Below, piece by piece: positions 1-32,076 of a stretch of 59,432 nt of DNA; position 1 is the stretch's first letter; the number at the start of each line of letters is the position of its first letter. The notes under the pieces are model-generated. The model was not told where the DNA came from. It worked only from the letters and a program-made list of their open reading frames with translations, and ran no database searches. This DNA comes from a virus (lineage: Duplodnaviria > Caudoviricetes), in IMG/VR virus record IMGVR_UViG_3300014838_001974, positions 1-59,432 of that record; one strand, 5' to 3'. The translations under genes and the position numbers were made by a program.

Positions 1-1056
1 ATGTCACCCCGTCACTACGGTGCTTTGGATTTCTATCGGTTTATCGCCGCGACTGGCGTCGCCGTATTGCATTTCAGCATTTTTGCAAAATATGACGCGT
101 CATACGGATTTGGCGCCGCCGTAGGCAACTTCACGTTTTTCGTCGATTTCTTTTTCATCTTGTCAGGCTTCGTGATCGGATTAACCTATTCCGAATCCGT
201 TTCAGGCGGTGACGGCATCTTCACATACCTGCGGCGGCGCATCGCGCGAATATATCCGCTGCACATCCTCACGCTGAGTTTATTTCTTGTGCCTGGGCTG
301 CTTGGCCTTGGTCATCACCCCGATAAGGCAAACTTATTTCTGATCCTGCAAGAAGTGCTGCTGATGAGGTCATGGCCGCTGCACGCCTCATTGCCCTATA
401 ACTTCCCCTCATGGTCAATCAGCGTCGAATGGTCGATGTATCTGGTCTTCCCGGCAATCATCTTACTGTATCGACGATGCGGATTCCTTGCGCTCGTGGC
501 TTTGATAGTTGCCGACATTGTAATCGTCGGGACCGTTCTCACCGCTGACTACCCGTGGACACTCCTAGACAACCCACTTCGTGCGCTGCCCACCTTCACG
601 ATCGGTGTTCTGATTTCGTGGATACCAATGAAAGCGAGGGTCGCCGGTAGCGAATGGTTGAGCTTCGGCGCCTTCGTATTCTCGGTTGTGCTGATGATCT
701 TTCAAGCGAACACCTTGTTCATCCTCACCGCTTTAGTCACGACCGTCTTTTTTGCTGCGCTGAGCAACAATTCGTTGTTCAACCGGAAGATCTACGCCGA
801 ACTGGGCAACGCGTCATACGCCATCTACATGCTGCATGCGTTCATGCTGACGGTTTTTGTCGACAATGTTTGGCCGCGCTTGTTCGGAGGCCCGGTACCG
901 CTGAGCTATGGCGCAGCAATTATTGCCGTCACGATCGCGGTATCTATTTTTGTGTTTCGATATTTCGAGGTTCCGATGAGGCGCTGGATATCCGGCGGTA
1001 GATTCAAGCTGCCTTCGCCAGCCCCACCGGACTATTATCGTTCGAAGCTGGATTGA
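1..1056 (+). CDS. Acyltransferase-3 family (OafA/Oac-like) membrane O-acyltransferase; probable lysogenic-conversion moron
   Basis: Motifs LDFYRFIAA..V.VLH, VDFFFILSGFVI, RRRIARIYPLH, WSISVEW..Y, LGNASYAIYMLH and YFEVPMRR; about 10 hydrophobic segments; opposite strand to the late genes. Confidence 0.9.
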   Translation: MSPRHYGALDFYRFIAATGVAVLHFSIFAKYDASYGFGAAVGNFTFFVDFFFILSGFVIGLTYSESVSGGDGIFTYLRRRIARIYPLHILTLSLFLVPGLLGLGHHPDKANLFLILQEVLLMRSWPLHASLPYNFPSWSISVEWSMYLVFPAIILLYRRCGFLALVALIVADIVIVGTVLTADYPWTLLDNPLRALPTFTIGVLISWIPMKARVAGSEWLSFGAFVFSVVLMIFQANTLFILTALVTTVFFAALSNNSLFNRKIYAELGNASYAIYMLHAFMLTVFVDNVWPRLFGGPVPLSYGAAIIAVTIAVSIFVFRYFEVPMRRWISGGRFKLPSPAPPDYYRSKLD

Positions 1057-4000
1057 TGTCTCGTTCTAGTAGCCAGTTCTGCTGTGGGCACGCGGGCGGG
1101 ACGATTGGAAGGAATGCCGTCGGACTGCCGCACGGAATAGTTCCGGGCTGGCCGCTGCGCATGTAGTTGTTAGCCGCAGCGGCGATCCATGTCGTGTTCC
1201 AGCCGGATTGCGCGTTCTGCGTCATCGCTTGCGCAATGTAGTGATTGCCCGAGCCGTTCGTCATAGCAACGGGGCCGACATTTGACAGCGTACCGGGAGG
1301 CGCGGAAACCGTGAACGACGTGCCCGAGCCGGACACAACCTGCATGAATTGCGCACAGCCCGTGCAAAATACATAGTCGAAGATCGCAGGAGCGGTCCCG
1401 CTGTTGATCACGAGTGTGCCGCCATCATAGCTGCTACCCGCACCCGGATTGAATGTGCATGGGCTGTTACAGGTCACTGTGCCATTGAAACCGCTGCCGT
1501 TGTTCGCGGCGTCATAGGCTTCGACGTTGGCATTCGGATAAATCGTCGAGCATGGGACGGTTTTGGTGCCGCAATTCATCACCTGCGATGTTGCAAGTGC
1601 CGGGAGATTGGTTCCGGAAAATCCGACATCACTTGTGTTGTTTGAAACGTTCGTCTTGCTCCAATAATAAATATAGTTGCCGCTGCCGTTGTTACCGCTC
1701 GTCTGGGTTTCCCAGATAATGGCGGGAGACCCAGATCCGGAAGTGTTGCTGCCTTGATTAATAAACAGGTTGTTCGGGCCGAACCGGGCAATTGGGGTAT
1801 TGGGATTGTTAGGAAGATTAAACAAGAATGTCTGGCCGCCGTCCCCAACAGGCACCGACCCGCCGATTGCCGCAATAGAAGGATCGCATGTCACAAGCGT
1901 TGTTTTATCCGACGAAATAAATTTTGCTGTTGTTCCGCCCTGTGACCCGCTGATCGTTTGCGGAAAGGCGAAACTCGCACCAACAAACACGTTAGTCCCT
2001 GCCGCGCAGGTAGCGTCCGCCGTGACATACGATGGAATGTTTACCGCAGGCATTGAATTTTCGACAATCGAGAACTTGAACAGAGTGCTTCCGGTTCGGG
2101 CAATGTTAGAGCCGGTTGTTCCTAGATGGGTATCGATGTCGGTCCCGCCCGCACAAAGCCCGCTGCCGTTGGCGGCGTAGACCGGATAGGCGGTCGAGCT
2201 GCCATTAGCGGGATCGGCGCAATACCACGTGTTCAACGAAAGCCCTGCGGGCAACGCGCCGGGTGTCCCTGTGGAATAAATGATGGTAACGCCGGTTCCA
2301 ACGCTGAGACCCGCGCTGGGAGTCCAAGAAGCAATCGACGCACCCGGCTGCGTGGAGCATGTCCCAGCCGTGGTGATACTGTTGATCGTTGTGATGTTGC
2401 CAGCCGAATTTGTCGATGCATTCAACACCGGATTAACCGAACAACCAGCGCCTGCCCATGTGAGGGTCCCGGTGACGGAAGCTCCGTAGCCGCTGCCAGA
2501 ATAATTTACAGCGGGGGCTTGTTTGAACTGGAATGGCTCGTCCTGACTTCTTGCAGAGGCAATGCTTGGCTCCGTCACGATAGCTGGCAAGGCCGCCGAG
2601 ACGGAAGAGACGATGGAGCCAGTAGCAAATTCTCCGGTGACCCCGATGGTCGCGGGACCGTTATCAACAAAAATTCCAGAGATGTTCGCCAGTATGCCGT
2701 AACCGTTTCCAGCCCAAATTTGTATGTTGTCGCCAATCTGAACACCGTTGCCGCGAATGCCAGCAGTAATTGCCGTGCTGAGGTTTACAGAAAATCCATC
2801 TCTTGCGGATGCTATAAAAGCTGTGTTCGGAATCGATCCGGGATTGGAAAGGTTGACAATACCATTACCACTGGCGCTTCCGATAGCCGCCGCTAGAACG
2901 CCGTCTATCGAAAGAACGGTGCCGGAAGTAGCGGCAGCGGTTGCAGTTCTGTTAGCAACAATGTTGTCGTTTGCCTGCTCAACTACATTGTAGGAAATGA
3001 AACAGGGGTTGTCCTGAAGGTTGGCTGCAAGCGCACCTGAATTTTTCCAGAACAAGTTATTTATGGCCGTGCCGCAGTCACGGTACTGGCCATCTGCCGC
3101 ATTATTGAATACCGAGTTTCCGTGAATATAGATCGGAGCCTGCGGGTTGTGCAGATACCATGTGTGATCCAGCGACGTCGCAAAATAAGCCCATACATTT
3201 GGATTCCAAGCGCCAAAGTTCGAAGCATTTTCCTCTATCGTGATCTGGCCGGTGCTGGGGCAAGTCGGGCTGTATGTCGAGAGACAATTTGCAGGTATGA
3301 AGAGATTGGCTGTGTTTTGAGTTGACCCGTTAAATATGCTTCGCCTAAAAAACTGGTTTACGATTGGATAGCCTCCCGCAACAGTGCCGCCGCCAACGGT
3401 GGCAAAAGCCCCATAATCGAATCTATCGTCCTCGATAATTAAAGTGTTGGTCGTGCCGTTCATCGAGACGCCTGCATTTGCATTCCGCGTCTGGATCTGG
3501 ATCTTCATCTGGGTCGCGGTGAATGATGCGTTCGCATTCATCAGAATTGAAGTCTGAGCTGCGGCAATCGTAAAAGCCACGGAACCACCGCTTGAATATG
3601 TTCCAGCAAACGTAGTTCCAGCCAATTCAAGATGAGTGCTATCGTCAACAGCGCTTACCGTCGTCGTGGCGTTACACGCCGTTCCAGTTGCGCCAGCAAT
3701 GCCAGTCACAGCCACTGCCTGACCGATCGCCACGCCGGTCGTGCTGCTGACAGTCAGCTTGCACTGGCCTACGTTGGTCGTTCCGGTGACTGCCCCGGTT
3801 ATAGTCAATGTAAGAGGGGAAAAACTGTTGATGCCGTTTCCGATGATGGAAAAACTTGCGGATGTATAAATCTGCGAAGGTATGCCCGCCCCTGCGTTAA
3901 TATTGCAGATGACATTCGCTGTCCCGCAATTGGCGACGCCCGTATCGGCCGTGAGCGTAGCTCCCTGAAAAAACGGAGAAGCCGGATCATGTACTGCACT

Positions 4001-4639
4001 TTCGCAGTTGAGCCCGACGAAAGCCATGTACTCGCCGTTATGCTGATTTGTTGTCCAGCAAGATATATTGTCAGAAGTGGACTGGCTTATTATCGGACGT
4101 GCTCCGGTCCCACCAGCAATCACCAGCATCAGTTCATTGTTGGAAAGCCCCGACTTTCCCCAATTGTCATTTGACGTCGAGTTAAGACTTCCCGCCCAAG
4201 TATCGCTGCGCTTGAGAACCATCCAGTCTGGCTGGTTATTGCGCATGAGAGCTTGCGCTGCACCCAACGTCGAGCACGAAGTGGTAGCCCAACTACTAAT
4301 GGACGATAATTGGGTGCTGGACGTAATGCCTAACGATGCTGCGGTAACTGCTGTGCAATTCCCCGGAGCACTGCTCGAAACCAGAACTATTTTGGTCCCC
4401 GCCGAAGGCGTGAAAACCGTGTAGCCCGTCACAAGCCCGACGCACCAGTTCTGCCCGACCGGCTGGATGCCGCAGGTGTTGGCGTAAGTCGGAATTGATC
4501 CGTGCATCGCAGCCTGATGCAGCACCGAGACCGAGAACGGCAGCTTGGGTTCACCGATGAAAGGCTTCGCGCTGACGGAACCGAGGCCCGCGCCGATCAA
4601 AACCAGCGATAGAACGAGGAGGCGAACAATGTTCTTCAT
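1004..4639 (-). CDS. Large exported Gly/Ser/Thr/Asn/Cys-rich protein, probably parallel beta-helix (pectin-lyase-like, depolymerase/tailspike-like) with inserted domains
   Basis: Start moved to MKNIVRLLVLSLVLIGAGLGSVSA (signal peptide). VLVSSS...TLGAAQALMRNNQPDWMVLKRSDTW...GTGARPII resembles the cap of beta-helix proteins; Asn-rich repeats follow. Confidence 0.65.
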   Translation of the reverse strand: MKNIVRLLVLSLVLIGAGLGSVSAKPFIGEPKLPFSVSVLHQAAMHGSIPTYANTCGIQPVGQNWCVGLVTGYTVFTPSAGTKIVLVSSSAPGNCTAVTAASLGITSSTQLSSISSWATTSCSTLGAAQALMRNNQPDWMVLKRSDTWAGSLNSTSNDNWGKSGLSNNELMLVIAGGTGARPIISQSTSDNISCWTTNQHNGEYMAFVGLNCESAVHDPASPFFQGATLTADTGVANCGTANVICNINAGAGIPSQIYTSASFSIIGNGINSFSPLTLTITGAVTGTTNVGQCKLTVSSTTGVAIGQAVAVTGIAGATGTACNATTTVSAVDDSTHLELAGTTFAGTYSSGGSVAFTIAAAQTSILMNANASFTATQMKIQIQTRNANAGVSMNGTTNTLIIEDDRFDYGAFATVGGGTVAGGYPIVNQFFRRSIFNGSTQNTANLFIPANCLSTYSPTCPSTGQITIEENASNFGAWNPNVWAYFATSLDHTWYLHNPQAPIYIHGNSVFNNAADGQYRDCGTAINNLFWKNSGALAANLQDNPCFISYNVVEQANDNIVANRTATAAATSGTVLSIDGVLAAAIGSASGNGIVNLSNPGSIPNTAFIASARDGFSVNLSTAITAGIRGNGVQIGDNIQIWAGNGYGILANISGIFVDNGPATIGVTGEFATGSIVSSVSAALPAIVTEPSIASARSQDEPFQFKQAPAVNYSGSGYGASVTGTLTWAGAGCSVNPVLNASTNSAGNITTINSITTAGTCSTQPGASIASWTPSAGLSVGTGVTIIYSTGTPGALPAGLSLNTWYCADPANGSSTAYPVYAANGSGLCAGGTDIDTHLGTTGSNIARTGSTLFKFSIVENSMPAVNIPSYVTADATCAAGTNVFVGASFAFPQTISGSQGGTTAKFISSDKTTLVTCDPSIAAIGGSVPVGDGGQTFLFNLPNNPNTPIARFGPNNLFINQGSNTSGSGSPAIIWETQTSGNNGSGNYIYYWSKTNVSNNTSDVGFSGTNLPALATSQVMNCGTKTVPCSTIYPNANVEAYDAANNGSGFNGTVTCNSPCTFNPGAGSSYDGGTLVINSGTAPAIFDYVFCTGCAQFMQVVSGSGTSFTVSAPPGTLSNVGPVAMTNGSGNHYIAQAMTQNAQSGWNTTWIAAAANNYMRSGQPGTIPCGSPTAFLPIVPPACPQQNWLLERDINPASNDNSPVGLAKAA

Positions 4640-4641
4640 GT

Positions 4642-5784
4642 TCAGCATCCGATACACCGGGACCCGCCGCTGGATGGCGCGCTCACCGTGATCCCGGTGT
4701 TACCACCGAGATCGAATGAGCTCGTCGGCAACAGGGGCCCACCGGTGACCGTGATCTGCTTGAACGCTCCCCATGAGGCCGAAAGCGTGGCTCCGGTCAC
4801 GGCTAACGTTGCCACCGAAGTCGAGTTCGTACTGGAGCCGGACAGCTCGACCAAACCATTTGATGCCCCGGTTATCGTGAGCGCTCCCGTGATTGTATTC
4901 GTCGTGGCGGAAGTCAGCGTGTAACGTCCGGGACCATTGAAAATCAACGTGCCAAATGAATTTGATCCCGTGATCGCGTTTTCTGTGGCATTGGTTCTGC
5001 TGTTGAACTTCACCGTTCCGTAAGTCTTGCCCGCTCCGGCGAAACTCGCGGAGTTTCCAGTAAAGCCGCTGGCATTTATGACAATCGTCCCCGAATTGAA
5101 CGTGGACGACCCGTTGGCGTTCGTCATATCCCACGGTGTAGAACCATTCAAAGTGAGAGTTCCGGAACCCAACGTTATAACAGGAGAGCCCGTGCTGTTG
5201 GCCAAAAGACCGTTGCCGACGGATGAGATATTCAAGTTTTGACCGTTGAAATTCAGGCCACCATTATATGCACCCAACGTTAAAGCTGCGATGGTGGCAT
5301 TGTTCATCGTGGAATCGAGAGCAACGGTTCCGAGCAGCGAATTGGCATCGAACGTAGCCGTATCTGCCGTGCCGGGAGCGGATGATCCCCCGGAACCACA
5401 CGTAGCCGTCGATGACGCCGCCCAGCTGGCTGTATTAGATGCAGTCCATAATCCGCCCGACGCGCAAGCCGGGCCGCCGAATGTGCCCGCACCAAATGTC
5501 GATCCAGCCAGTTCGATGTGCGTGGTGTCGTCCACAGCACTGATCGAAAACGTACCATTACATCCCGTCACCCCGGTGATGCCGACAACAGTCACCGAAG
5601 TTCCGACCAGGAGGCCGCCGCCGACAATGGCAGGCGATATCGTGAGCTTACACTGACCTACGTTGGTCGTTCCGGTGCCCGCTCCCGTCACGGAATATGG
5701 ATTCCAGAAACGTGTCGCCGCCCCCGCCTGCGACGATACCAGCAGCCCCAGCGCGATCAGGGCATATCGGAGATAATTTTTCAT
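4642..5784 (-). CDS. Exported Gly/Thr/Ser-rich beta-solenoid-like protein (virion appendage/adhesin-like)
   Basis: Start moved to MKNYLRYALIALGLLVSSQAGA (signal peptide). TRFW...GGLWTASNTASWA...APGTADTATFDANS followed by autotransporter-like beta repeats. Confidence 0.65.
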   Translation of the reverse strand: MKNYLRYALIALGLLVSSQAGAATRFWNPYSVTGAGTGTTNVGQCKLTISPAIVGGGLLVGTSVTVVGITGVTGCNGTFSISAVDDTTHIELAGSTFGAGTFGGPACASGGLWTASNTASWAASSTATCGSGGSSAPGTADTATFDANSLLGTVALDSTMNNATIAALTLGAYNGGLNFNGQNLNISSVGNGLLANSTGSPVITLGSGTLTLNGSTPWDMTNANGSSTFNSGTIVINASGFTGNSASFAGAGKTYGTVKFNSRTNATENAITGSNSFGTLIFNGPGRYTLTSATTNTITGALTITGASNGLVELSGSSTNSTSVATLAVTGATLSASWGAFKQITVTGGPLLPTSSFDLGGNTGITVSAPSSGGSRCIGC

Positions 5785-5789
5785 TGTGA

Positions 5790-7022
5790 TTAACCCGAGT
5801 AGCCGGATGCCGAGCAGATCACGCTGGCTCCAGTCGTGACGTCCTGCGCATAGAGACCATTGCCCGCCGTGGTCCAGAACAGAGGGTACGCATTGGTGCC
5901 CTGCTCGCCGCCGAAATTGTCTGCAGCGACCAATGTGTCGAGTACAGTCCCGCCGCTGCCGTCTTGAATTTGAACCAGCGTATTGACGGTCGTGCTTGAA
6001 TTGTTGCACTTCACCCGGGTGATGTAGAGCCGCTTGCTCGCGACCGCTGCCACCACCTGGGTGCTCGATGTTCCCGTCATGGCAGCTGAGACGGTGCCGG
6101 AAACAAACGTTTGCCCCAGCGCGAGTGTACCTGGAATTTGCGTTTCGAACGCGGGGTTGGTCGCGCTTAAAGCCGTACCACCCTGCGTCGGTACCACGCC
6201 GTTGCCGTTCACCAGCGATGGCGTCGCATTGAGACCGACACCGCCGATAATGTTCGAGATCGCCTGCGTCGCCAGCGGATTACCCGCCGTCGTGTTGAGC
6301 GTACCGAGAGCGGCATAGACGCCCTTGAGGAGGGCGATGACGGACGCCGAACCCGAACCGCCATAGGCGGCGTCGGCCTTGGCTCCCTGCGTCAGGTCCC
6401 AGCCATCGACGCCGGCGCCGGTCGCGAAAGCCCCTGCGGAAAGCGCACCGGCCGCATAAGATCCGACCGCCGCTGTGATGGCGCCGCCGCCAGTGCCACT
6501 CGACCCGCCGCCAAATCCGGTGCCGTTGCCCGAACCACCCGCCATCAGGATCTGGTTCGATCCTGTGCTTCCGGTCTGATCTATACAGGAGACGTGGTCG
6601 AAACCAGTGACGCCGATATCCTTGACGCTCATCGGCGGCAGGATGACGTTGTTGACGACGCCGGTGGCAGCCCCGCTCGCAAACGTGCACGACACATAGG
6701 CCGAGGTCAGGTTGGCAAATTCAACCGTGCCGGTACTGGTCGGCAGCGCGGTAGATGCCGAGGGCGACGCGGTCGCAGTCAGGGTTCCGAACACGTTGCT
6801 CGGCGTGAACGGGGTCGACGATCCCCCGCTAGATCCTCCACATTGTCCAGCGGTCGTTGCCGGCACCCATTGTCCGCTGCCGTTTTCGCAACCGAACATC
6901 ACCGAACCGACCGAACTCTCTCCGGCTGTCGTTGTCGGCCACTGCGTGGTCGCCAGTGCCGGCGCCGCTGACGCGAGAGCCCAGACACAGCAAGCCGCCG
7001 CCAGATTGCGGATGATCTTCAT
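5790..7022 (-). CDS. Exported structural-type protein (Gly/Thr-rich, two beta-sandwich-like domains)
   Basis: Signal peptide MKIIRNLAAACCVWALASAAPALA; SD-like GGAG upstream; linker QGAKADAAY..SGSASVIALLKG seen in phage structural proteins. Confidence 0.6.
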   Translation of the reverse strand: MKIIRNLAAACCVWALASAAPALATTQWPTTTAGESSVGSVMFGCENGSGQWVPATTAGQCGGSSGGSSTPFTPSNVFGTLTATASPSASTALPTSTGTVEFANLTSAYVSCTFASGAATGVVNNVILPPMSVKDIGVTGFDHVSCIDQTGSTGSNQILMAGGSGNGTGFGGGSSGTGGGAITAAVGSYAAGALSAGAFATGAGVDGWDLTQGAKADAAYGGSGSASVIALLKGVYAALGTLNTTAGNPLATQAISNIIGGVGLNATPSLVNGNGVVPTQGGTALSATNPAFETQIPGTLALGQTFVSGTVSAAMTGTSSTQVVAAVASKRLYITRVKCNNSSTTVNTLVQIQDGSGGTVLDTLVAADNFGGEQGTNAYPLFWTTAGNGLYAQDVTTGASVICSASGYSG

Positions 7023-7056: not shown

Positions 7057-7509
7057 TCAGACGCCGCCGGGCGCCACGTAGCAGTAAACGAACCAGGTGC
7101 GGCTCAGGAAGATCACACCATGGCCGCTCGGATTGCGCTGTGGCGTCGGGTCGGTGTCGCCCGCTCCCCATTTGAATTTTTGCGCAGGCACCTCGATCTC
7201 GGTGCCGATCGGGACATGTGGACGCATCCGTGGCGCGTCTGGCCTGTCGTCGGTAATCACGGCATAGACCTTGCCGTTCCTGACGTGAATCTCGTCCGCC
7301 CAATAGGCGTCGGCCTCGCCGCAGCACGATGCGGCCGGTTGATCCGGCTGCCTCAAATTCTGGTACCATTCGCGGATCGCGGGGTCGTTGTTGATGGCCC
7401 CCCATTGCCCGAGATCCCGGGAGTGGCCCAGCTTGACCGTGTAGAGATAACCGCCGATCGCCAGCATCGCGGCGATCGCCAGCAGCAGCCTGCGGTTCTC
7501 GGCGCTCAT
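7057..7509 (-). CDS. Hypothetical phage protein with N-terminal membrane anchor/signal and SCCGEAD motif
   Basis: Hydrophobic N-terminus; translationally coupled (ATGA overlap) to the upstream gene. Confidence 0.7.
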   Translation of the reverse strand: MSAENRRLLLAIAAMLAIGGYLYTVKLGHSRDLGQWGAINNDPAIREWYQNLRQPDQPAASCCGEADAYWADEIHVRNGKVYAVITDDRPDAPRMRPHVPIGTEIEVPAQKFKWGAGDTDPTPQRNPSGHGVIFLSRTWFVYCYVAPGGV

Positions 7510-7838
7510 TGCACGGACACCCGCGCCACGCCGGCACCGACAAAGCCGAGCTCGCGCGCGATGCCGTGGCTGACGTCGATCACGCGGCCGGTCCAGCTCG
7601 CCGGACCGAAATCATTGACGTAGCAGCGCGCGCTGCGCCCGGTCGCCAGCACGGTGACGGTGACCCAGCGCCAATGATGCGTCCGCATCGCACAGGTCGC
7701 GCCCTCGGGGTGAAAGCGCTGCCCGCTCGCGGTCTGGCGGCCGCTCTCGGCGCCGTACCAGGACGCCAGGCCGGATTCGGCCGACGCGGGGATGGCGAGC
7801 GCGCACAGCAACGCCGCCGCGCATGCGGTTTTCAACAT
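7506..7838 (-). CDS. RlpA-like double-psi beta-barrel protein (lytic transglycosylase family), exported
   Basis: GLASWYG..GRQTASGQRF...TCA...VNDFGP...GRVIDVSHGIARELG is the RlpA signature; signal peptide MLKTACAAALLCALAIPASA. Confidence 0.85.
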   Translation of the reverse strand: MLKTACAAALLCALAIPASAESGLASWYGAESGRQTASGQRFHPEGATCAMRTHHWRWVTVTVLATGRSARCYVNDFGPASWTGRVIDVSHGIARELGFVGAGVARVSVQ

Positions 7839-7857
7839 GATGAATGCCTTTCGGTTT

Positions 7858-8208
7858 TCAGTAATGCGGCGGCGGCGTGCCGCCGCCCTTCGACAGCCAG
7901 GTCGCCAGCCAGGTGATGGCCCCGCCGGCGGCCGCCGACAGGAAATGCCCGATCGCGCCCAGCACGCGGCTCTGGCCCAGATGATCGCCGGTGCGGCGAT
8001 TCTCACGCCGCTCCATATCGGTGAGACGATCCCAGAGCCGGCGCTGGTCGTCGCTCAGGCGCTCGTTCTGCTTGCGCAGGTCATTGATCTGGTCGGTCTT
8101 GAGATCGTTGATCTCCTGGCGCAGCAGGTCCTCGATGCGCTTGAATCCGGATTTGATTTCGGACTCGAGCCGGGTGACGCGAGCGTCGACGGCGGCAGCG
8201 TCGGTCAT
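7858..8208 (-). CDS. Coiled-coil protein with C-terminal TM helix (XhlA/holin-like lysis accessory)
   Basis: N-terminal coiled coil (RVTRLESEIK...), one C-terminal hydrophobic helix; located in the lysis region. Confidence 0.55.
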   Translation of the reverse strand: MTDAAAVDARVTRLESEIKSGFKRIEDLLRQEINDLKTDQINDLRKQNERLSDDQRRLWDRLTDMERRENRRTGDHLGQSRVLGAIGHFLSAAAGGAITWLATWLSKGGGTPPPHY

Positions 8209-10143: not shown

Positions 10144-10292
10144 GGAAGCGCCGCCTTCCAGATGCAGCGCACATACATGATGCCGATCGCCTCGCATCGA
10201 TCGTGCGGCGCGCGCGGGCGATGATGCCGCGGATGCGCGAGAGCGCTCCCGGCAAGCAGCACCAGCAGCCCGATCGCGATCAGGCCGCGCAC
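10140..10292 (-). CDS. Small exported protein (50 aa)
   Basis: GTG start: MRGLIAIGLLVLLAGSALA-HPRHHRPR..C..C; fills the gap between coupled genes. Confidence 0.5.
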   Translation of the reverse strand: MRGLIAIGLLVLLAGSALAHPRHHRPRAPHDRCEAIGIMYVRCIWKAALP

Positions 10293-11002
10293 GCGACCCA
10301 GTCCGCCTTCAGCTCGTCGAACGTGCCGGCATAGCTGTTGATGTCGACGCCGCGGGTGATGATTCCGGGCAGCGTGTGCGGCACCGGCCCGATGCCGTCG
10401 CCGGTGAACTGCCACAGCGTCGGCCGGGCCCAGGGCAGCTGGTGCCCGTTGCTGTCGGTCATGCGGGCGCGCGGTCCGTACTGGCATAGCCAGAATTTTC
10501 GTTTCGCAAAGGTCGCGCGCACCTCGGCCGAGGCGTTGCCGATCAATTCCTTGATGCGGTTGCCGCTGTAGAGCCACAGCAGCCGGCCGAGCTTCTCGTC
10601 GGCGAGCTGCAGGAACTGCACCGCTTCCGACAGCGTCATCTGGCTTTGCCGGTTGTCCTCGAAATCCAGCGCGAGCATGGTCTGCGCGTCGGGCTGCGCC
10701 GCGTCGAAGAAATGATTGACCTGACCGGGAATCGTATCGCCGGTGTTGAAGTGATAGCCGGCCGTCAGCAGCCCGGCGGCCCTCGCATTTTTGCTGCGCG
10801 ACGCGTAGGCCGGATCGTGCTCGCCGATGCCTTGCGTGGCCTTGTGGATCAGGCCCCAGATCCCGGCCTGCTTCAGCACGGCGAAATCCGCCACCGGATC
10901 GGTGCGGTGCACGTCGCTGACCATGATGTCGCCGTGGTAGATATCGACCACGCGCGGGGTGACGGGCATGGCGGGAGCGCCCGCGGAAACGGTATCGGTC
11001 AT
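10280..11002 (-). CDS. Endolysin, glycoside hydrolase family 25 lysozyme
   Basis: VDIYHGD, IHKATQG, GYHF, ALDFED (DxE), WLCQY, LWQFT and VDIN motifs. Confidence 0.9.
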   Translation of the reverse strand: MTDTVSAGAPAMPVTPRVVDIYHGDIMVSDVHRTDPVADFAVLKQAGIWGLIHKATQGIGEHDPAYASRSKNARAAGLLTAGYHFNTGDTIPGQVNHFFDAAQPDAQTMLALDFEDNRQSQMTLSEAVQFLQLADEKLGRLLWLYSGNRIKELIGNASAEVRATFAKRKFWLCQYGPRARMTDSNGHQLPWARPTLWQFTGDGIGPVPHTLPGIITRGVDINSYAGTFDELKADWVACAA

Positions 11003-14250: not shown

Positions 14251-15792
14251 TCAGGCGGCCTGACGCCGGCGATCGGCGACGGGCGCGGCGAAATCGTCAT
14301 TCGCCGCCAAGGACGACGACGGATACGAAGGCGCCTCATTCATCGCCAGCACCCGGATCATGCAGTTGGCGGTCAAGGTCGGCTGTGTCGTCCTTACCGG
14401 CGTCGGCGACGCGGCCGTGTTGTTCGATGTGACGGCGATCGGATTGGACCCGGTGAACGACGACGTGTAGCCGACCGAAGCGGACGAATTCGAAATCGGA
14501 GCGACGTTGCCGCCGGTGCCGGTGCCGACGCCGCCCCATCCCGTCGTGTTGAAGGGCACGTATTGGGCCGCGCTGCCGCCGGGATTGACCGAGATATTGT
14601 TGGCTCCGTTCGACGTGATCGACGGAATGTTGCCGCTGGAACCGGCCACGAGTTGCGTGCTCTGACTGCCGCCGCTGGCGCCGAGCGCGTTCGGATTGGT
14701 CCCGAAATAGGTCGATGTCAGATTGCCGGCCGGCGTGCCGCTCATGTTGGGACGGCCTGCCAGCACCACGCCCTGGCACTGCGGCAGATTGAACGTGGTC
14801 GAGCCGTCGCCGTTGCCGTTCGGAAAGATCGTCACGTTCGCCGTGCCGCTCGAGGTGGCGTTGATCGCCATCGTGCAGGTGGTCGGGGTGCAGGAGAGGA
14901 TCGTGTCGGACGCCGGAACGCCGGAGCCCTCGATCGCCGCGCCGGTCGGGATTTGGGTCGTATCGGTGAAACCGGTCAGTGTCGGCGAACCGGTCGTTCG
15001 CGTGACGGATTGCGTGATCGTGGTGCCGGTCAGGAGCGCGGCATAGGTCGTCCGCGAGACCGCCTGCCCGTAGGAAAACAGATATTTCGCCGAAGGCGGC
15101 GCGGTCAGGCTCGTCATGATGTAGTCGCCGACGTCGATCGACGGATTGATCAGCGCGCCGCCCGAGGCCGGCGTGTAGCTCGCGACCTGCCAGTTGCCGC
15201 TTCCCAGCGAAACCAGCGTCGCCTGGTCACCGGGCACCGTCGGGGAGATATTGTTGGCGCCGGGAATGATCAGGCTGGTCGCATTGTAGGTCAGGATCAG
15301 CGCGCCCGAAAACGTCACCAGCTTGACCACGCCGGCGGGACAGGTCGCACCAAAACTGGTGATGGTGGTGGTGCCGGAAATGGTCAGGTAATTGCGCGGG
15401 GTCGAGCAGAGATCGACCGTCGAGGCGCTGGCAAGCGTGGCGGCGCCGCCACCGATCTGCACGTTCCAGGCGTGCGCCGTGGGATCGAGCCAACCGATCG
15501 CGGGCCAGTTCGAGCTGCCGTCGTTCATTCCCAGCGGATAAGGCGCCGAGGTCAGGTTGAGCCACCAGTTGCCGAGCGACGCCGAGCCGGAAAGCTGGTT
15601 GGTGGGCGCGGTCGCGCCGGAGTTGGCGGTATTGAGTGAATCCAGCGCGGAATTGTAATTGTTGGTGAGCTGCAGGCCGCTGACCGTGCCGGTGGTCGGC
15701 GACAGCAGCGCATTCTGCGACGCCCAGGATGGCGCGATCTGCGCCAGCACCAGGACGGCCGAAAGCAACAGCGCGTTCAGACGATCGAGCAT
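14251..15792 (-). CDS. Tail fibre protein with phage tail-collar domain, signal peptide and SsrA-like C-terminal extension
   Basis: Collar motif YGQAVSRTTYAALL...GNGDGSTTFNLP and terminal QPTLTANCMIRV; start MLDRLNALLLSAVLVLAQIAPSWA. Confidence 0.85.
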   Translation of the reverse strand: MLDRLNALLLSAVLVLAQIAPSWASQNALLSPTTGTVSGLQLTNNYNSALDSLNTANSGATAPTNQLSGSASLGNWWLNLTSAPYPLGMNDGSSNWPAIGWLDPTAHAWNVQIGGGAATLASASTVDLCSTPRNYLTISGTTTITSFGATCPAGVVKLVTFSGALILTYNATSLIIPGANNISPTVPGDQATLVSLGSGNWQVASYTPASGGALINPSIDVGDYIMTSLTAPPSAKYLFSYGQAVSRTTYAALLTGTTITQSVTRTTGSPTLTGFTDTTQIPTGAAIEGSGVPASDTILSCTPTTCTMAINATSSGTANVTIFPNGNGDGSTTFNLPQCQGVVLAGRPNMSGTPAGNLTSTYFGTNPNALGASGGSQSTQLVAGSSGNIPSITSNGANNISVNPGGSAAQYVPFNTTGWGGVGTGTGGNVAPISNSSASVGYTSSFTGSNPIAVTSNNTAASPTPVRTTQPTLTANCMIRVLAMNEAPSYPSSSLAANDDFAAPVADRRRQAA

Positions 15793-15823
15793 CGTTGGTG
15801 GTCCTGTTGATGAATGGATGGTT

Positions 15824-16354
15824 TCAGCGGGCTTGCGGCGGATGCTTGCCGATGATGATCGAGACATAGCCCGGTGGGCTTGCCCCGTTGACGATCTCGG
15901 GTGCCAGCCGGCCGTTCGTCGCTTTTTTCAGCATCGCGATCGCCTGCTCCGCCGCCGGGCGGTCGAACGGGTTGACCGTGATGCCGATGCCATAGCCGAG
16001 CGGCCCGACCGCATGATCGAGGCCGCTGGAGATTCCAGCCCCTTCAAGCGCGTCGTCGATATCGGAGGCGAGTTCGCTGCAACTGGCATCGTTGCAGACG
16101 ATGTCGAATTTGACGCCTTTGGGCAGCGTCTTGCCGACGTCGGTGATCGCGGATTTTTCTTCCTCGCTCAAGGATGGCCAGGCGTGTTTCAGGAACGCCG
16201 GCGAATCCGACATTTTAGCCGCCATGCGCAATTCAAAGACCATCTCCTGCAGGATGCGGATGCGCTGGTGATCCGTCATCGGATGCTTGTGCCGGGCCAG
16301 CGCCGGCGAGACGGCCAGCGCCAGCGCCATCGCGGCCATGATGCAGCGTTTCAT
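15824..16354 (-). CDS. Exported hypothetical protein
   Basis: Signal peptide MKRCIMAAMALALAVSPALA; contains a CxxxxC pair. Confidence 0.7.
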   Translation of the reverse strand: MKRCIMAAMALALAVSPALARHKHPMTDHQRIRILQEMVFELRMAAKMSDSPAFLKHAWPSLSEEEKSAITDVGKTLPKGVKFDIVCNDASCSELASDIDDALEGAGISSGLDHAVGPLGYGIGITVNPFDRPAAEQAIAMLKKATNGRLAPEIVNGASPPGYVSIIIGKHPPQAR

Positions 16355-16357
16355 TTT

Positions 16358-19300
16358 CTAATATCCTTCCACGGTCATGCTCAGGCTTCGCACCACCCGC
16401 ACCCCGCTGTTGACGACTTCGAAGGTGATCGACGACAGCGACAGCGACGAGATCAGGAGATCGTCGCCGGCCTGGGCGTTGACGATGCCCCATTGCACCA
16501 CCGGCAGGCCGGACGGGCCGGCCCCGCCATTGAAGGGCGCGGTGGCGGAAGCGCCAGTCGGCTCGAAAGTGATGGTGGTGTTGGCCGACGAAGAGGTCGT
16601 CACCGCGTAGGTATCGATCCGCGGCGGGATGGTGATGGTGATGACGAATTCGAGGTTGTAGGCGATGGTCAGCGGATCGACGGTCTCCAGCAGCATCGCG
16701 AAGTTGATGGCGCGCGCCTGATAGGTGCCCGGCGAGAAGCGCTGGAAGCCATTCCAGTTGTAATCGGCCGACGTGTAGAGATCCGGATACTGGTAGAGGT
16801 CTCCGAGCGAATAGAGATCGCCGCCGGTCGCGGTCGCGGTGTTGATCAGCGGATAGACCGTGATGTATTGCGTCGACGCCGAGCCGAGAATGTCCGGCGT
16901 GTTGAGAAAATCTCCGATCGCGAGGATGTTCTGTCCGACCGGAACGCCGGTCGGCTGGTACTGGATCGAGATCGACGCGTTGGCGACATAGCCGATGTCG
17001 AGGAACGCCGCGTCGCTCGGAAAATACTCGCCCGAAATGCCGCCGCCATATTCCAGGATATCCGTGGTGCCGAGGATGCTGGAATCGGTCAGGATGTTGC
17101 CGCCGCCGGTGCGGATGGCGTTGATGGCGTTGTCGACGCCGGCGCCGCCGCTGAAGGCGCCGGGCCAGTTGTCGGCCTTGAGGTCGACGGTCAGCACCAC
17201 GTTTTGCGTGATCACCGCGCCGGCGACCGCGATATCCTCCCAGGCTTCCGAATAGACCGTCAGGCCCGGAACCGGTGTTGCGACCGCGGCGACCCAATAG
17301 GTGCCGTTGCCCGGCACCCGGAACGGCGGATGCGCCACCTGCCCCAATGAAAGCGCCGAGGCGAACGACGTTCCGGTGCGCACCTCGTATTTGAAGGCGC
17401 GGAAGTCCGTAATGTCGTCCCAGTCGAGTTCGGTGAAGCCGGCATTGACGTCGAACACGGTGCGCAGATTGGTGATGCTGGGCAGCGGCGAGGCCAGCGC
17501 CGAGCCGGTGATCGCGTAGGTGTAGGGCGTGCAGTCCGCGAGGCTTTGCTGACCTCCCTGATAGATGTTGAAGGACTGGAATTTAAGATAAAGCGTCGCC
17601 CCGATCCGGCCCTGGTCGTAGGCGAAGGCGAAGATGTTGCCGTCGAGCCGCGCGAACGGCGTGCCGACCGGATGGCTGGCGATCTCGGATTCGGTGCCAT
17701 AGGCGCCGCGCACCAGATAGGTCAGGTTGTAGGCCTTGGCTCCCGTCAGGGTGGCTGTGGCGTAGGAAAGAATCTCGCCGCCGAGATAGAAGGCGGTGTT
17801 CAGCGCCAGCGCGTCGCCCTGCGTTCCGGACGACAAGGTCGCTCCGCTTTCCGCGACGTTGACCGAAACGGCGTTCTGCGTGTCGATGGTCTGCTGGCCG
17901 GTCGGATTCGCCGCAACCGCCGGCGTGACCGCTGACGTGACACCCATCCGTGACGGGCCGATGATCTCGCCGACGCGCTGATAGTTCTCCCCGTCATAGC
18001 TGGCCCAGACGAAGCAGCCGCCCCAGGTCTGCAGATCCTGCCCCGAAACCGCGCCCCAGATCTGCAAACCGCCCAGCGCGTTGGTCTGGTTCAGTTCGTC
18101 CGTGGGCTCGAAGATGATCGGCGCGTTAACCGGCCCCGGCGCCACGTTGTAGTTGATCACGGCGCCGGCGGTCGGCTGCGTCCCGTAGGTCGGCGCCGAC
18201 ACCGTGCCGAGATATTCCTCGGCCGTGACGGTGATCGAGAAGTCGGAATTCTCCTGGATCTCGATGATGCGGGCGGGCTGTTCGAAGAACCCCTGCCCCT
18301 CATCGGTCACCGTGACCAGCGCCATCAGCTCGAGGATGAGCATGAAGTGCCGGCCGCAGGTGAACTGGAACGTTCGCGCGATCTGCTGGCGCACCAGCTG
18401 CAGCATCGCCGATTGCTGCGCGGCGCCGGCGAGGCAGAAGAAGTGGTACTGCTTGATGTCGCTCGGCCGGGTGCGGCCGAAGGCGATGATCGAGGCCTCA
18501 TCCTTGACCTCGATATCGACCGGATTATAGGAGTTCGGGCGATCGAGATATTCGACCTTGACGACGTTGTTCATCTGATCGCGCGAGGTGCGCACGCAGA
18601 TCAGCGGCGAATTGTTGACGGCCAGCCCCGAGCCGATGGTGCCCTGGTTCGCAAGAAAATCGTCGAGCGTGAAATCGTACAGCGGCGTGGTGTTCGGATA
18701 ATACGATGCCGCCGCGGCGTAGTCGTAGCTGATCAGGACTTCCTGGTTGATGTCCCCCGGATTGAAATAATAGACCCCGCCCTGCTCGTAGTACTGGCCC
18801 TGCGCCGGGCTTCCGCTGGTGGCGTAGCCCGTCGGCTCATAGGTCGTGACTTTGGTCAGCGGCGCTCCGCTCGAATAGGTGACCCCGCCGTCACCCGCGA
18901 ACAGCGCATAGAAGCTGACTTCGATCAGCGGCCAGTAAAGCGGATTCCCTTGCGAATCGACGCCGTTCTGATCGGCCGGGACGTCATGCGTTTCCGTGAT
19001 CGACCGCACCTGGCCCGCGGTCACCGCGGCGTCCCCATAGGGAACCACGGTGAATTGCCCGTCCTGCCAGCACGGCGCCGAATTGGTGGCGTCGGTCAAG
19101 TCGTTGACGAACGAGGACGCCGCCACGCTCGAGGCGATCACCGGCGAAACCACCAGGCCGAGCGCGAGGCAGTAGCTCTGCCATTGTGCGAACGAGCCGA
19201 GCCGGGACACCGGGAATCCCAGGCCGTAATACGGATTGGTCAGGAACGAGGTCAGCGCGACCGAAGCGTCCCCGTCCGGCTGGCCGGCGATGGCGGTCGC

Positions 19301-19852
19301 GTTCGGCGACACCACTTCGAAGGTGATGTTCGGAATCGCGGGCGACGATCCCAGCGGAAAATTGGCGAACGCGGCATAGCAGATGCCGCGATAGGCCTGC
19401 GCATGCGAGACGTCGTAGGCTTCGGTGTTGCTCCACGGCTGTTGGGCATAGTCGCCGAGAAAGTTTTCCTGCTCGTAATAGAAGCCGTTGAGATAGAACT
19501 GCCCGTTCTCGTCCGGCGTTCCCGGAAAGCTGGCGGGCGTGCCGCCGATCCACATGTTCGAGATGTTGTAGACCGGGCCCTCGCAGATGCCGATGATGAA
19601 CGAGGTGAAGTAATCGTAGTTGCCGCTGCTGCCCTTGCCGCCGCCCGAGACCGCGCCGCCCTTGCCGCCGCCGGATGATGGCGCGTTCTGGTAGTTGAAG
19701 CCGTAATTGTCCAGCAGATTGCCGGCTACGCGATTCTGACCTCCGAGCACCAGCGCGATCGGCACGCCCTGCAGCGAGGTGTTGACGCGCAGTGACGTCG
19801 CCGGCGGCGATGTCTGCTGGGCGCCGAAGATACCGGTAAGGAACCGAGCCAC
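16358..19852 (-). CDS. Tail tip / host-specificity protein (tip attachment J / GTA megatron-like)
   Basis: SLQGVPIALVLG..RVAGN, IGICEGPV, AYRGICY, PNITFEV and RGAYGT motifs; position after the NlpC/P60 gene. Confidence 0.88.
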   Translation of the reverse strand: MARFLTGIFGAQQTSPPATSLRVNTSLQGVPIALVLGGQNRVAGNLLDNYGFNYQNAPSSGGGKGGAVSGGGKGSSGNYDYFTSFIIGICEGPVYNISNMWIGGTPASFPGTPDENGQFYLNGFYYEQENFLGDYAQQPWSNTEAYDVSHAQAYRGICYAAFANFPLGSSPAIPNITFEVVSPNATAIAGQPDGDASVALTSFLTNPYYGLGFPVSRLGSFAQWQSYCLALGLVVSPVIASSVAASSFVNDLTDATNSAPCWQDGQFTVVPYGDAAVTAGQVRSITETHDVPADQNGVDSQGNPLYWPLIEVSFYALFAGDGGVTYSSGAPLTKVTTYEPTGYATSGSPAQGQYYEQGGVYYFNPGDINQEVLISYDYAAAASYYPNTTPLYDFTLDDFLANQGTIGSGLAVNNSPLICVRTSRDQMNNVVKVEYLDRPNSYNPVDIEVKDEASIIAFGRTRPSDIKQYHFFCLAGAAQQSAMLQLVRQQIARTFQFTCGRHFMLILELMALVTVTDEGQGFFEQPARIIEIQENSDFSITVTAEEYLGTVSAPTYGTQPTAGAVINYNVAPGPVNAPIIFEPTDELNQTNALGGLQIWGAVSGQDLQTWGGCFVWASYDGENYQRVGEIIGPSRMGVTSAVTPAVAANPTGQQTIDTQNAVSVNVAESGATLSSGTQGDALALNTAFYLGGEILSYATATLTGAKAYNLTYLVRGAYGTESEIASHPVGTPFARLDGNIFAFAYDQGRIGATLYLKFQSFNIYQGGQQSLADCTPYTYAITGSALASPLPSITNLRTVFDVNAGFTELDWDDITDFRAFKYEVRTGTSFASALSLGQVAHPPFRVPGNGTYWVAAVATPVPGLTVYSEAWEDIAVAGAVITQNVVLTVDLKADNWPGAFSGGAGVDNAINAIRTGGGNILTDSSILGTTDILEYGGGISGEYFPSDAAFLDIGYVANASISIQYQPTGVPVGQNILAIGDFLNTPDILGSASTQYITVYPLINTATATGGDLYSLGDLYQYPDLYTSADYNWNGFQRFSPGTYQARAINFAMLLETVDPLTIAYNLEFVITITIPPRIDTYAVTTSSSANTTITFEPTGASATAPFNGGAGPSGLPVVQWGIVNAQAGDDLLISSLSLSSITFEVVNSGVRVVRSLSMTVEGY

Positions 19853-30464: not shown

Positions 30465-31946
30465 TCAGCTAATCGCGGGCGCCCAACGAACGAACTGGTC
30501 GACCGCAATCGATGCGGGATGCCGCATCTGGAAGTCGTGCTCCTGGATCGCGCGGATGATGGTCTGATCCTTCTGGAAGGCCGAGACCGTCGCACCGGTG
30601 GAGTCGATGTACATGCCCTCGCGGGACACCGCGAGCTCCATGGTCATCGCATCCAGGATCATGGCGTCGGTCATCTCCACCAGGAAGATGAACGAGCAGT
30701 CCTTGTTGGTGCCGGTCGTGTCCCAGATATTGATTGGGATCTGGGTCGACTTCTTGAACGGATAACCCAGCAGCGTGCCGCGCGACAGTTCGTCCCGGTA
30801 GACATAGACGCCGAGCGAATTCTGCACGTTGTTGAGGTAGTTGAAGATGCGGGGATGGAAGAACCACACCCGGCGCATATCGGGGACATTGGCGGTATCG
30901 AGCTTGTTGACCAGGCCGCCGAGCTCGGCTGCCGCGGTTGCCAGCGTATAGGCCAACGTCGAGGTGATGAAGTTGCCGCCGACGGCCGCGGTCGAATTCG
31001 CGGTCGCCGACCAAAGGCCCTGGGTGCCGGCATTCTGCAAGGCCCACATGTTCGCGAACGAAATGAACCCGCGCGGCGTATCCAGGGTGCCGTCGCCGAG
31101 CATGAACGCGAGATCTTCGCGCAGCGCCATCACCTTCACTAGGTCGTCGCGCACGAAGGCGTCGGCGGCCGGATCGGAATAGCGCATCAGATCGTTGGTG
31201 ACCGGCACCAATGCCGTCAGTTTCTTGTAGGTGGCGACAATCTGGCCGAGCTGCTGCTGGGAAGCCGTGATGGTCGCGGTTTCGCCGGAATAGGTCGCGG
31301 TCGCGGCCTGAGTCTGGGCGGGCAAGGTCATGGTGCCGCGCGGCATCGGCATGGTTCGCGGATTGGAGGCGCGAACGACCGCCAAAGGCCGCAACAGTTC
31401 GATGATCTCGTTGATGTACTCCGGAGGCACCATGAAGCCACCCGAGGCGCCGACGCCGGCGAGCAATGCCTTGGTAATGGGGTGGTTCTCGCCGTAGATC
31501 TCCTTGGCGTGCTGGCGCGCTTCGTAGAACGAGCCGTGGCCAAGGCCGATCATCTTGGCGATGCCGCCCATCACCAGACCCTTGTTGGTGACAAGACCGC
31601 GGGCCTTGGCAGCGGATTCCGACGTCCAGGGATCGTCATTGGCGGTCGCGGGAACGAGCGGGCGGTCCTGGCCGTTCACCGGTACCAGCGACTTGCGCTC
31701 CAGGTCCTGCATCGCCTGCAGGCGATCGATCTCGGCGTCGAATTCGGTTTCGGTCGCCTTGATCTTGAGGTCGATGTCCTCGATCGACTTCTTCAATCGG
31801 GCGAACTCGACGTCGTCGGTGCCGATCTTGAAATCCTTCTTCGGCTTTTCGCCGACGGTCTTCATCTTGGTGTAGTCGGCGAGACGAAGAGCGTTCAGCT
31901 CCTCGAGCGCCTTGGCGCGCGCGGCGCGCACGGCTGCGATCGTCAT
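30465..31946 (-). CDS. Major capsid protein, HK97 family
   Basis: N-terminal coiled-coil delta domain; GGFMVPPEYINEIIELLR, KKLTALVPVTNDLM, GTLLGYP and SAFQKDQTIIRA..HDF..RHP. Confidence 0.95.
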   Translation of the reverse strand: MTIAAVRAARAKALEELNALRLADYTKMKTVGEKPKKDFKIGTDDVEFARLKKSIEDIDLKIKATETEFDAEIDRLQAMQDLERKSLVPVNGQDRPLVPATANDDPWTSESAAKARGLVTNKGLVMGGIAKMIGLGHGSFYEARQHAKEIYGENHPITKALLAGVGASGGFMVPPEYINEIIELLRPLAVVRASNPRTMPMPRGTMTLPAQTQAATATYSGETATITASQQQLGQIVATYKKLTALVPVTNDLMRYSDPAADAFVRDDLVKVMALREDLAFMLGDGTLDTPRGFISFANMWALQNAGTQGLWSATANSTAAVGGNFITSTLAYTLATAAAELGGLVNKLDTANVPDMRRVWFFHPRIFNYLNNVQNSLGVYVYRDELSRGTLLGYPFKKSTQIPINIWDTTGTNKDCSFIFLVEMTDAMILDAMTMELAVSREGMYIDSTGATVSAFQKDQTIIRAIQEHDFQMRHPASIAVDQFVRWAPAIS

Positions 31947-32076
31947 GATGCGTATCCTTGAAAAGGGTGAAAGGGGTTTCGTCCACGCGCCATGTCGGCA
32001 GCGGTCGTCATCACCATGTCGGCGATGCGGGCGTGTCGCCCTTCAACTTGGTCCGGCGTGTCGCCGGGAAATTTCG

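Follow-up and report, generated by a model that had tools for sequence, protein, structure and literature searches.

Why should a giant exported protein of a temperate tailed phage end in a peptide that looks like the tag added by transfer-messenger RNA (tmRNA)? The protein is encoded at the left end of IMG/VR provirus record IMGVR_UViG_3300014838_001974, the whole of which (59,432 nucleotides) was analyzed and is called the window below. A first-pass annotation had described its C-terminus as an SsrA-tag mimic hard-wired into the genome. The tail was found where that annotation had placed it: the translated minus-strand open reading frame (ORF) ends in ...NWLLERDINPASNDNSPVGLAKAA and a stop, and translation of window positions 1004-4657 on the minus strand gave a protein ending in ...ACPQQNWLLERDINPASNDNSPVGLAKAA and a stop. 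The stop codon and 24 tail residues occupy 1004-1078; the range 1004-1075 given originally takes in the stop and 23 residues and is one codon short. The probable start is the ATG at 4639 (MKNIVRLLVLSLVLIGAGLGSVSA, followed by KP), 2 nt past the stop of the upstream gene, which yields a protein of 1211 amino acids (aa) identical to database protein P0003. Its N-terminus was called signal-peptide-like from a hydropathy heuristic, in agreement with the original description of the protein as exported, and we infer the position of the signal-peptide cleavage site. As a tentative answer, we favor the reading that this tail, a portable and flexible recognition peptide at the C-termini of exported enzymes carried by phages, takes advantage of host factors that read C-terminal tags. 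Its role as a signal is probably breakdown, trimming or sorting. Likeness to tmRNA tags makes a degron plausible, and a sorting signal is nearly as likely.

The original description treated the tail as a feature of one giant protein, and this view has to be given up: the tail is portable and ends dozens of exported proteins that are unrelated to one another, most of them phage-borne. It is a discrete unit of 22-24 residues with the consensus LLKRD(I/L)DPASNDNxPxWLxKAA. Five of seven whole-protein homologues keep it, and the other two stop at the junction or a few residues from it. When 1.84 billion representatives were searched with the last 499 aa of the giant protein, 52 hits were obtained, 17 of which match into the C-terminal domain (the 45-aa P0059 being left aside); six of these are tailed and 11 are tail-less. 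Conservation of the motif among homologues, which the annotation had named as a check, is thus observed, and absence from homologues can no longer be held against mimicry. In four of the tail-less proteins (P0019, P0021, P0027 and P0032), the last residues are ...CP.Q, the exact point from which a tail would follow. Two further hits, P0025 (...YLLKRDLGGPANDNTPAFLGAAA) and P0051 (...YLLEDDLHRSPANDNGFVPAFLARAA), share only an internal domain with the query and carry divergent tails that keep PANDN...AA; these tails surfaced through similarity of the bodies and not of the tails themselves. A query with the divergent ANDN-type tail of P0025 returned only P0025 itself.

Using the 45-aa tail fragment (P0059) as a query among longer proteins, we obtained 31 hits, all of which end in an N[FW]LLKRD[IL]DPASNDNxPMWLEKAA-type sequence on unrelated bodies. 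Altogether the tail was seen on 41 database proteins with unrelated bodies, and 32 of these have signal-peptide-like starts by the same heuristic; the remaining nine, which may include fragments, are short or begin with V or L. A Pfam scan of ten tail-bearing proteins, P0051 and P0025 included, assigned a domain to three (a GDSL/SGNH acylhydrolase, a BNR sialidase-like domain and an E1_FCCH-like barrel) and no Pfam family to the other seven. In our reading, uncultured soil phages attach the tail to Sec-exported accessory proteins, some with carbohydrate- or ester-hydrolase-type domains. Note also that a [FWL]x[HR]G motif lies directly behind the signal peptide in most tail-bearing proteins (P0005-P0086; L002:2785-6072; L015:952-4398), and together with the tail it means that both ends are conserved in otherwise unrelated proteins.

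Junctions of the module could also be read in genomic DNA. At a chromosomal locus of an alphaproteobacterial metagenome-assembled genome (MAG; locus L013), a homologue of the body stops with TAA at the junction (...QCNG), and no tail follows in any frame. A decayed tail (...FVWLLKRDVDPASNDNDPMWIRNSLG and a stop) lies ∼2.5 kb downstream of this homologue, and its neighbors encode a Wzx-type flippase (by Pfam), a glycosyltransferase and a methyltransferase. This fragment (L013:5732-6055) and a second decayed one (L030:8131-8409) adjoin mutually homologous genes, that of L013 being the Wzx-type polysaccharide flippase gene.

The distribution of the tail was surveyed with a degenerate DNA pattern for KRD.DPASNDN.P. 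Because this pattern demands K and NDN, it misses the E-type tail of the window itself and biases conservation counts at those positions. Two matching stretches were found in the genomes of 185,579 species: the decayed copy at L013 and an intact gene for 1095 aa, which lies on a contig of 61 kb assigned by binning to a Bryobacteraceae MAG. Another 13 loci came from IMG/VR and 20 from metagenomes. Searches with tblastn using the tail fragment gave only spurious partial hits in 50,697 cultured-phage records and 72,556 plasmids, and no relatives of the giant protein were found among the 185,579 species genomes with single-sequence or alignment queries. Eight phage records of different types were examined whole; each holds one tail-bearing gene, and three of the eight have direct terminal repeats and were rated complete. 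One is myovirus-like, with the tail gene upstream of tail-fiber and sheath genes (L019, PHROG hits), and two (G006 and G008) carry relatives of the window's tail-region gene. A shared phage lineage of the carriers was considered and rejected: the window terminase was unmatched in eight other virus records (L030 is not among them) and in G002, which holds the 61-kb contig (L002). No gene family is common to all eight phage records, the widest, found in five, being the tail-protein body itself, and no family recurs around the tail genes as a dedicated partner. Any factor that reads the tail is therefore likely to be a general one of the host. No useful host clue was provided by phage-borne tRNA or tmRNA genes in tail-bearing phages. 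In one of them (G007), ARAGORN called, beside a tRNA-Thr, a tRNA of unassigned identity whose anticodon has four bases (aggt; L119:484-561, minus strand), which could be a frameshift-suppressor-like tRNA or an artefact of prediction.

Selection on the tail acts on the protein and not on the DNA. For 29 distinct tail DNAs, the entropies at codon positions 1, 2 and 3 are 0.46, 0.29 and 1.35 bits, codon differences are synonymous in 3876 cases and non-synonymous in 1804, and the DNAs are on average 71% identical. A(-14), S(-13) and P(-8), numbered from the C-terminus, never vary in the 47 distinct tails of 22 residues, and none of these positions was forced by the search patterns. The K, R and D positions and NDN were partly forced by them, and their invariance is overstated in the same 47 tails. 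The tail is hydrophilic and acidic, lacks any hydrophobic stretch or transmembrane segment, and is modeled as a flexible appendage: AlphaFold2, run on the last 332 aa of the giant protein with a 22-row alignment, gave a mean predicted local distance difference test (pLDDT) value of 71, values of 34-64 in the tail and values below 50 for residues 327-332. A short low-confidence helix was modeled in the NWLLERDINP half (pLDDT 55-64).

Comparison with real tags requires a host, and the host tag cannot be read from the window, since no tmRNA or tRNA gene is found in it and only the provirus is in the record. The likely host lineage was approached through the terminase, which shares 85% and 86% identity with those of two prophages, one in a Pseudolabrys MAG and the other on a 5.47-Mb contig of an uncultured alphaproteobacterial MAG. 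Tags predicted by ARAGORN for these two MAGs are ANDNYAPVAQAA and ANDNFAPVAQAA, of the form ANDN[YF]APVAQAA, and in both sspB stands next to ssrA. In all three alphaproteobacterial MAGs examined for it, sspB lies within ∼1 kb of the tmRNA gene (L068:1474-2007, minus strand; G003:C4; G001:C5). Alpha-type tmRNA was found in 59 of 61 sampled genomes of the same order, where all 29 loci read encode ANDN...AA. The tag form proposed for alphaproteobacteria in the original note is borne out by all 33 alpha-type tmRNA genes read with ARAGORN. Tallied by eye, 28 of these tags are 12-mers, four are 13-mers and one is a 14-mer, and the spacing between NDN and the final AA is six residues in 28, seven in four and eight in one. 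One 10.2-Mb alphaproteobacterial MAG (G001) has two alpha-type tmRNA genes (L003 and L004) with tags ANDNYAPVAQAA and ANDNVALNEVRLAA, which may reflect a mixed bin or a second, possibly mobile, copy of ssrA.

The likeness between the tail and these tags is confined to the last 14 residues, ASNDNSPVGLAKAA. NDN and the terminal AA are common to the window tail and all 33 tags, the window spacing of seven residues equals that of the 13-residue tags, and the variable positions of the tail (-9 and -7 to -3) fall where the tags vary. Chance does not explain the match: among 672 ORFs of the eight phage records, the pattern NDN.{6,8}AA$ was matched only by six AA-ending tail proteins, against 0.002 expected from composition. 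In the window, the GH25 endolysin also ends in Ala-Ala (...DWVACAA), as do five more of the 66 ORFs, the giant protein included, and only the giant protein has NDN upstream. Since the tail is encoded in frame within its gene and is not added by trans-translation, it could only be a mimic and not a member of the tmRNA tags.

Under the reading that we favor, these last 14 residues would imitate the alphaproteobacterial tmRNA tag and be read by host machinery for C-terminal tags. NDN would sit where the tags carry their conserved NDN, the part bound by SspB, and the free Ala-Ala would be offered to ClpX or to a PDZ-type C-terminal protease. Precursor left in the cytoplasm might then be handed to ClpXP, with SspB, and the loose tail of the exported form might be clipped by a Prc/CtpA-type protease; the LLKRD.DP half would make a second contact. 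Alphaproteobacterial tmRNA tags are read by SspB and ClpXP in the cytoplasm and by Tsp/Prc in the periplasm. Substrates of Prc/CtpA-type proteases are exported and have an accessible, mostly non-polar C-terminal tail, which the protease removes; the last residues here, K-A-A, are only partly non-polar and lie in a flexible-modeled tail of an exported-looking protein. Sequence, modularity, protein-level selection, the link to signal peptides, phage carriage, and the tags and SspB of the likely host lineage were all directly observed, and from them we infer binding, degradation and clipping of the tail.

To assess the first contact, we predicted a complex between a 32-residue tail peptide and residues 1-125 of an SspB (the substrate-binding domain) with a 12-row alignment. 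The SspB used was a stand-in from a related alphaproteobacterial MAG (G004) and not that of the true host. The complex scored 0.42, as opposed to 0.02 for the best control, and separate runs agreed in at least 67% of contacts with partner pLDDT of at least 47. In calibration, 58 of 80 solved complexes came up to the mark, as did 2 of 110 mismatched pairs; seven of the 80 solved complexes and both passing mismatches reached it at 0.60 or under. Because SspB is already represented in the PDB (2qaz, 2qas and 2nys), the pass may only mirror likeness to a solved complex.

A number of observations weigh against tag mimicry. The complex score is itself weak. The full tag head, A-N-D-N-[Y/F/N/V]-[A/E], is not found in the window, which has A-S-N-D-N-S-P. 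Tags have A directly before NDN, Y, F, N or V after it, and Q, V, L, I or M at -3; in all 47 tails, S precedes NDN, D, S, T, N or A follows it, and an invariant P comes next. K is mostly found at -3 (36 of 47 tails), unlike in any of the 33 tags. PANDN, with the tag-like A before NDN, occurs only in the divergent tails P0025 and P0051. Nothing in the 33 tags corresponds to the LLKRD.DP half, to the invariant P-A-S that precedes NDN or to the P at the second position after it. The AA end is present in 43 of the 47 distinct tails, the other four ending in AG, VA, AS or TG. Hosts pose a further difficulty, as the GC content of tail-bearing loci ranges from 43% to 62%, which suggests several host groups. 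The Bryobacteraceae MAG, which is acidobacterial and contains one complete tail-bearing phage contig of 61 kb, has the tag ANNQQFAYAA and no match to SspB. This contig is a whole phage genome without host flanks and resembles the MAG in GC content; assignment of the phage to a Bryobacteraceae host is possible, and binning of phage contigs is unreliable. Finally, it would be costly to fit a 1211-aa protein with a constitutive degron, and the exclusive tie to exported proteins fits sorting after export equally well. The proposal of an SsrA-tag mimic thus stands in part: NDN, Ala-Ala, the seven-residue spacing (seen in four of 33 tags) and the presence of SspB in the likely host lineage agree with it, and the upstream half, S before NDN, S, D or T after NDN, and K at -3 do not.

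In the main rival reading, the tail would serve as a label that directs proteins into an envelope pathway not described so far (outer-membrane translocation, attachment to the surface or to peptidoglycan or lipopolysaccharide (LPS), or loading of vesicles) and would be read by a periplasmic or outer-membrane host factor; the likeness to tags would be due to chance or would amount to no more than a common preference for a free Ala-Ala end. We regard this as quite possible, if somewhat doubtful. Signal peptide, variable body and short C-terminal motif form the hallmark of protein-sorting families, and the architecture seen here is a signal peptide, a variable body and a short invariant C-terminal motif. 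Confinement of the tail to exported proteins (32 of 41, with the caveat about short or V/L-starting proteins given above), a best-conserved half that is not tag-like, handling at both ends as suggested by [FWL]x[HR]G behind many signal peptides, and tail-less relatives whose ends coincide with the junction, as they should if a sorting module were optional, all argue for a label, and the hosts may include bacteria other than alphaproteobacteria. Yet the tail has no transmembrane or hydrophobic anchor segment, no sorting-domain model of NCBIfam or Pfam matches it, no candidate sorting enzyme was seen near the tail genes or in common among the eight phage genomes, and retention of NDN in the most divergent tails (P0025 and P0051) would go unexplained.

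It seems unlikely that the tail is instead a structural or assembly element, such as a Ca2+-binding acidic loop (D.DP..NDN.P), an oligomerization clasp, or a peptide that docks enzymes to the virion as receptor-destroying side fibers. The tail is rich in Asp, Asn and Pro, and the tail gene stands beside or after tail-fiber genes in several phage records (L019 with its tail-fiber and sheath PHROG hits; the tail-region relatives of G006 and G008). There are also beta-helix and depolymerase-like leads for the body: language-model (Atlas) neighbors of the giant protein are right-handed beta-helix proteins, all with scores below 0.9 and to be taken as leads, and weak tailspike rows occur among the fold matches for the last 332 aa, none at E <= 0.001. 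The body is possibly a beta-helix. Against a structural role, the tail was modeled as flexible and not packed on the body, the window gene follows lysis genes in a low-GC cargo block, no structural partner is common to the eight phages, and the tail proteins have Sec-type signal peptides, which are not expected of virion parts assembled in the cytoplasm. On inspection, the sequence of the acidic loop lacked the canonical EF-hand pattern, and the EF-hand version was abandoned. We give hardly any credence to the notion that the tail is kept as a nucleic-acid feature (a site for cassette-swapping recombination, a terminator or the antisense end of a neighboring gene) with a functionless peptide. 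Remnants of the tail on unrelated or decayed upstream sequence (L013, L030, L031, L046 and P0059) do indicate that the junction recombines, and both the window and L002 have a converging gene that runs into the tail. Explanations at the DNA or RNA level are nevertheless rejected because of the codon analysis, in which third positions are free while the peptide stays constant and DNA identity is low, and because a terminator scan found no terminator-like site in the tail; this largely refutes the notion. The overlapping partners, moreover, are unrelated, and most loci have none. In the window, the overlap with the acyltransferase ORF is exactly the 53 bp (1004-1056, antisense) that the first-pass annotation had reported as encoding part of the tail. 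It looks incidental: among the loci examined, only L002 has a comparable arrangement, a 42-bp overlap between the tail of its 1095-aa gene and a converging gene of unrelated kind. The protein encoded by that converging gene on the 61-kb phage contig (L002:6031-6672, minus strand) has a PEP-CTERM-like anchor end (VPEPSTWAMLLIGFAGIAF...RRLRK).

Known systems provide partial parallels for the recognition peptide that we favor. The tail resembles the alphaproteobacterial tmRNA tags read by SspB and ClpXP in being flexible and of similar length, with NDN near the start of the tag-like part and a free Ala-Ala end. It differs from them in being gene-encoded without trans-translation, in the conserved 10-residue LLKRD.DP segment that precedes the tag-like part, in having S before NDN, no aromatic residue after it and K at -3, and in being confined to exported proteins. 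C-terminal protein-sorting signals include PEP-CTERM (exosortase), GlyGly-CTERM (rhombosortase), LPXTG (sortase) and the C-terminal domain (CTD) of the type 9 secretion system (T9SS). As in these, a short C-terminal motif is conserved on unrelated proteins that have a signal peptide and a variable body, but the tail has no transmembrane helix, basic anchor, family model or nearby processing enzyme. A known C-terminal sorting domain was rejected, as no curated model of NCBIfam or Pfam matched and the tail has no hydrophobic stretch. Proteins of RTX-type type 1 secretion lack an N-terminal signal peptide and carry Ca-binding nonapeptide repeats before an uncleaved C-terminal signal. This candidate was also discarded, as the giant protein has a signal-peptide-like N-terminus and no RTX or other Pfam repeat.

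Gene-encoded degrons of this general kind have precedents. SsrA-like degrons with xxx-Ala-Ala ends are encoded in the genes of Mycobacterium tuberculosis anti-sigma factors (10.1101/491043), and the tail shares with them a hard-wired C-terminal Ala-Ala peptide and, as proposed here, reading by ClpX. Those degrons are on cytoplasm-facing regulators and are not portable 24-residue modules, and they lack an NDN adaptor-type element, a signal peptide and phage carriage. ClpXP also controls cell-wall hydrolases (autolysins) in Staphylococcus aureus, namely Sle1 and CxcA (10.1101/2025.04.01.646552), where a cytoplasmic protease limits a potentially dangerous envelope-acting enzyme, as it would for the phage proteins. 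That host is Gram-positive, and the abstract of that study names no C-terminal module in common; the case is a parallel in logic and not a relative. C-terminal degrons and sorting signals are thus known kinds of element, and the tail module, its carriage by phages and its tag-like half were not found in the family libraries or literature searched, nor were strings of the tail motif found in that literature.

The surroundings of the gene are those of a prophage (Table 1), which additionally encodes a primase, an MT-A70 methylase and a helix-turn-helix (HTH) regulator. Downstream of the lysis genes, and at the far end of the prophage from the integrase, three tightly packed minus-strand genes with signal-peptide-like starts form a cargo block; the giant gene is the last of the block, and the convergent acyltransferase gene comes next. 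The GC content of the left end is 53-57%, as opposed to 60-67% elsewhere in the prophage, which fits acquired cargo. Together with the acyltransferase gene, the block looks like lysogenic-conversion cargo. Prophages are known to carry "moron" genes for exported proteins beside tail or lysis genes, and phages to encode O-antigen acyltransferases. The window resembles these cases in that genes for exported proteins form a low-GC block at one end of the prophage with an acyltransferase gene as neighbor, and differs in that homology to them was not seen in our analysis; known morons are not reported to have a C-terminal tail in common.

Table 1. Positions of the giant gene, its tail and other features in the window.
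Feature	Position	Strand	Remarks
Convergent Acyl_transf_3 acyltransferase gene	1..1056	+	Pfam E 8.7e-28; last 53 bp antisense to tail
Giant gene, 1211-aa exported protein	1004..4639	-	Body without family assignment
Stop codon TGA of giant gene	1004..1006	-	
Tag-like half of tail, ASNDNSPVGLAKAA	1007..1048	-	Last 14 residues, with NDN and C-terminal Ala-Ala; from translation
Upstream half of tail, NWLLERDINP	1049..1078	-	Family consensus N[FW]LLKRD[IL]DP; best-conserved, not tag-like
Signal-peptide-like N-terminus of giant protein, MKNIVRLLVLSLVLIGAGLGSVSA	4568..4639	-	Hydropathy heuristic 2.94; basic residues precede hydrophobic stretch
380-aa protein, signal-peptide-like start (MKNYLRYALIALGLLVSSQAGA...)	4642..5784	-	No tail; no Pfam match; upstream of giant gene
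410-aa protein, signal-peptide-like start	5790..7022	-	First gene of three-gene cargo block; no tail; no Pfam, PHROG or NCBIfam match
RlpA-like protein	7506-8006		Among lysis genes
GH25 endolysin	10280-11002	-	Lysis gene
Tail-collar-like protein	14251-15867		
Rcc01698-like tail protein	16358-19852		
Tape measure	22233-24446		
Protease and major head protein	30465-33690		
Portal	33703-35178		
Terminase large subunit	35178-36953		
Integrase	58359-59432		Right edge of window

The body of the giant protein was compared with family and structure libraries. No match to Pfam, PHROG or NCBIfam was obtained for the whole protein (for NCBIfam, nor for the last 99 aa, at E up to 1), PDB sequence profiles gave no hits at E <= 1, and the model of the last 332 aa had no fold matches at E <= 0.001. 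As a candidate tail fiber or tailspike, the giant protein has no PHROG or Pfam match, beta-helix leads that all fall below the 0.9 score, and a signal-peptide-like start; elsewhere, the tail gene does stand beside tail-fiber genes. A module of ∼60 aa (GTGTTNVGQCKLT...AVDD.TH.ELAG.TF) is common to the giant protein and the 380-aa protein encoded upstream of it, and the comparable region of the tail-bearing protein P0076 matches Pfam E1_FCCH.

New machines for sorting or processing have been discovered repeatedly through short C-terminal peptides that recur on many unrelated exported proteins, and this tail is nearly invariant across phages whose terminases do not match that of the window. There is a fair chance that the module marks something new. 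A more far-reaching proposal, which we consider less likely than not, takes one of two equally new forms. The tail and [FWL]x[HR]G could be the cargo mark of an undescribed envelope pathway of uncultured soil bacteria, which several types of phage load with large carbohydrate- or ester-hydrolase-type enzymes, or phages could have copied the host tmRNA tag onto exported enzymes, with the tag readers (SspB and ClpXP inside, a PDZ protease outside) policing export and maturation. If the tail is a true sorting label, it would point to an unknown envelope pathway in abundant soil bacteria. If it is a true copy of the tmRNA tag, phages would control exported enzymes by means of the degradation signal that the host employs in ribosome rescue, and the tail would offer a ready-made, naturally tuned degron for alphaproteobacteria.

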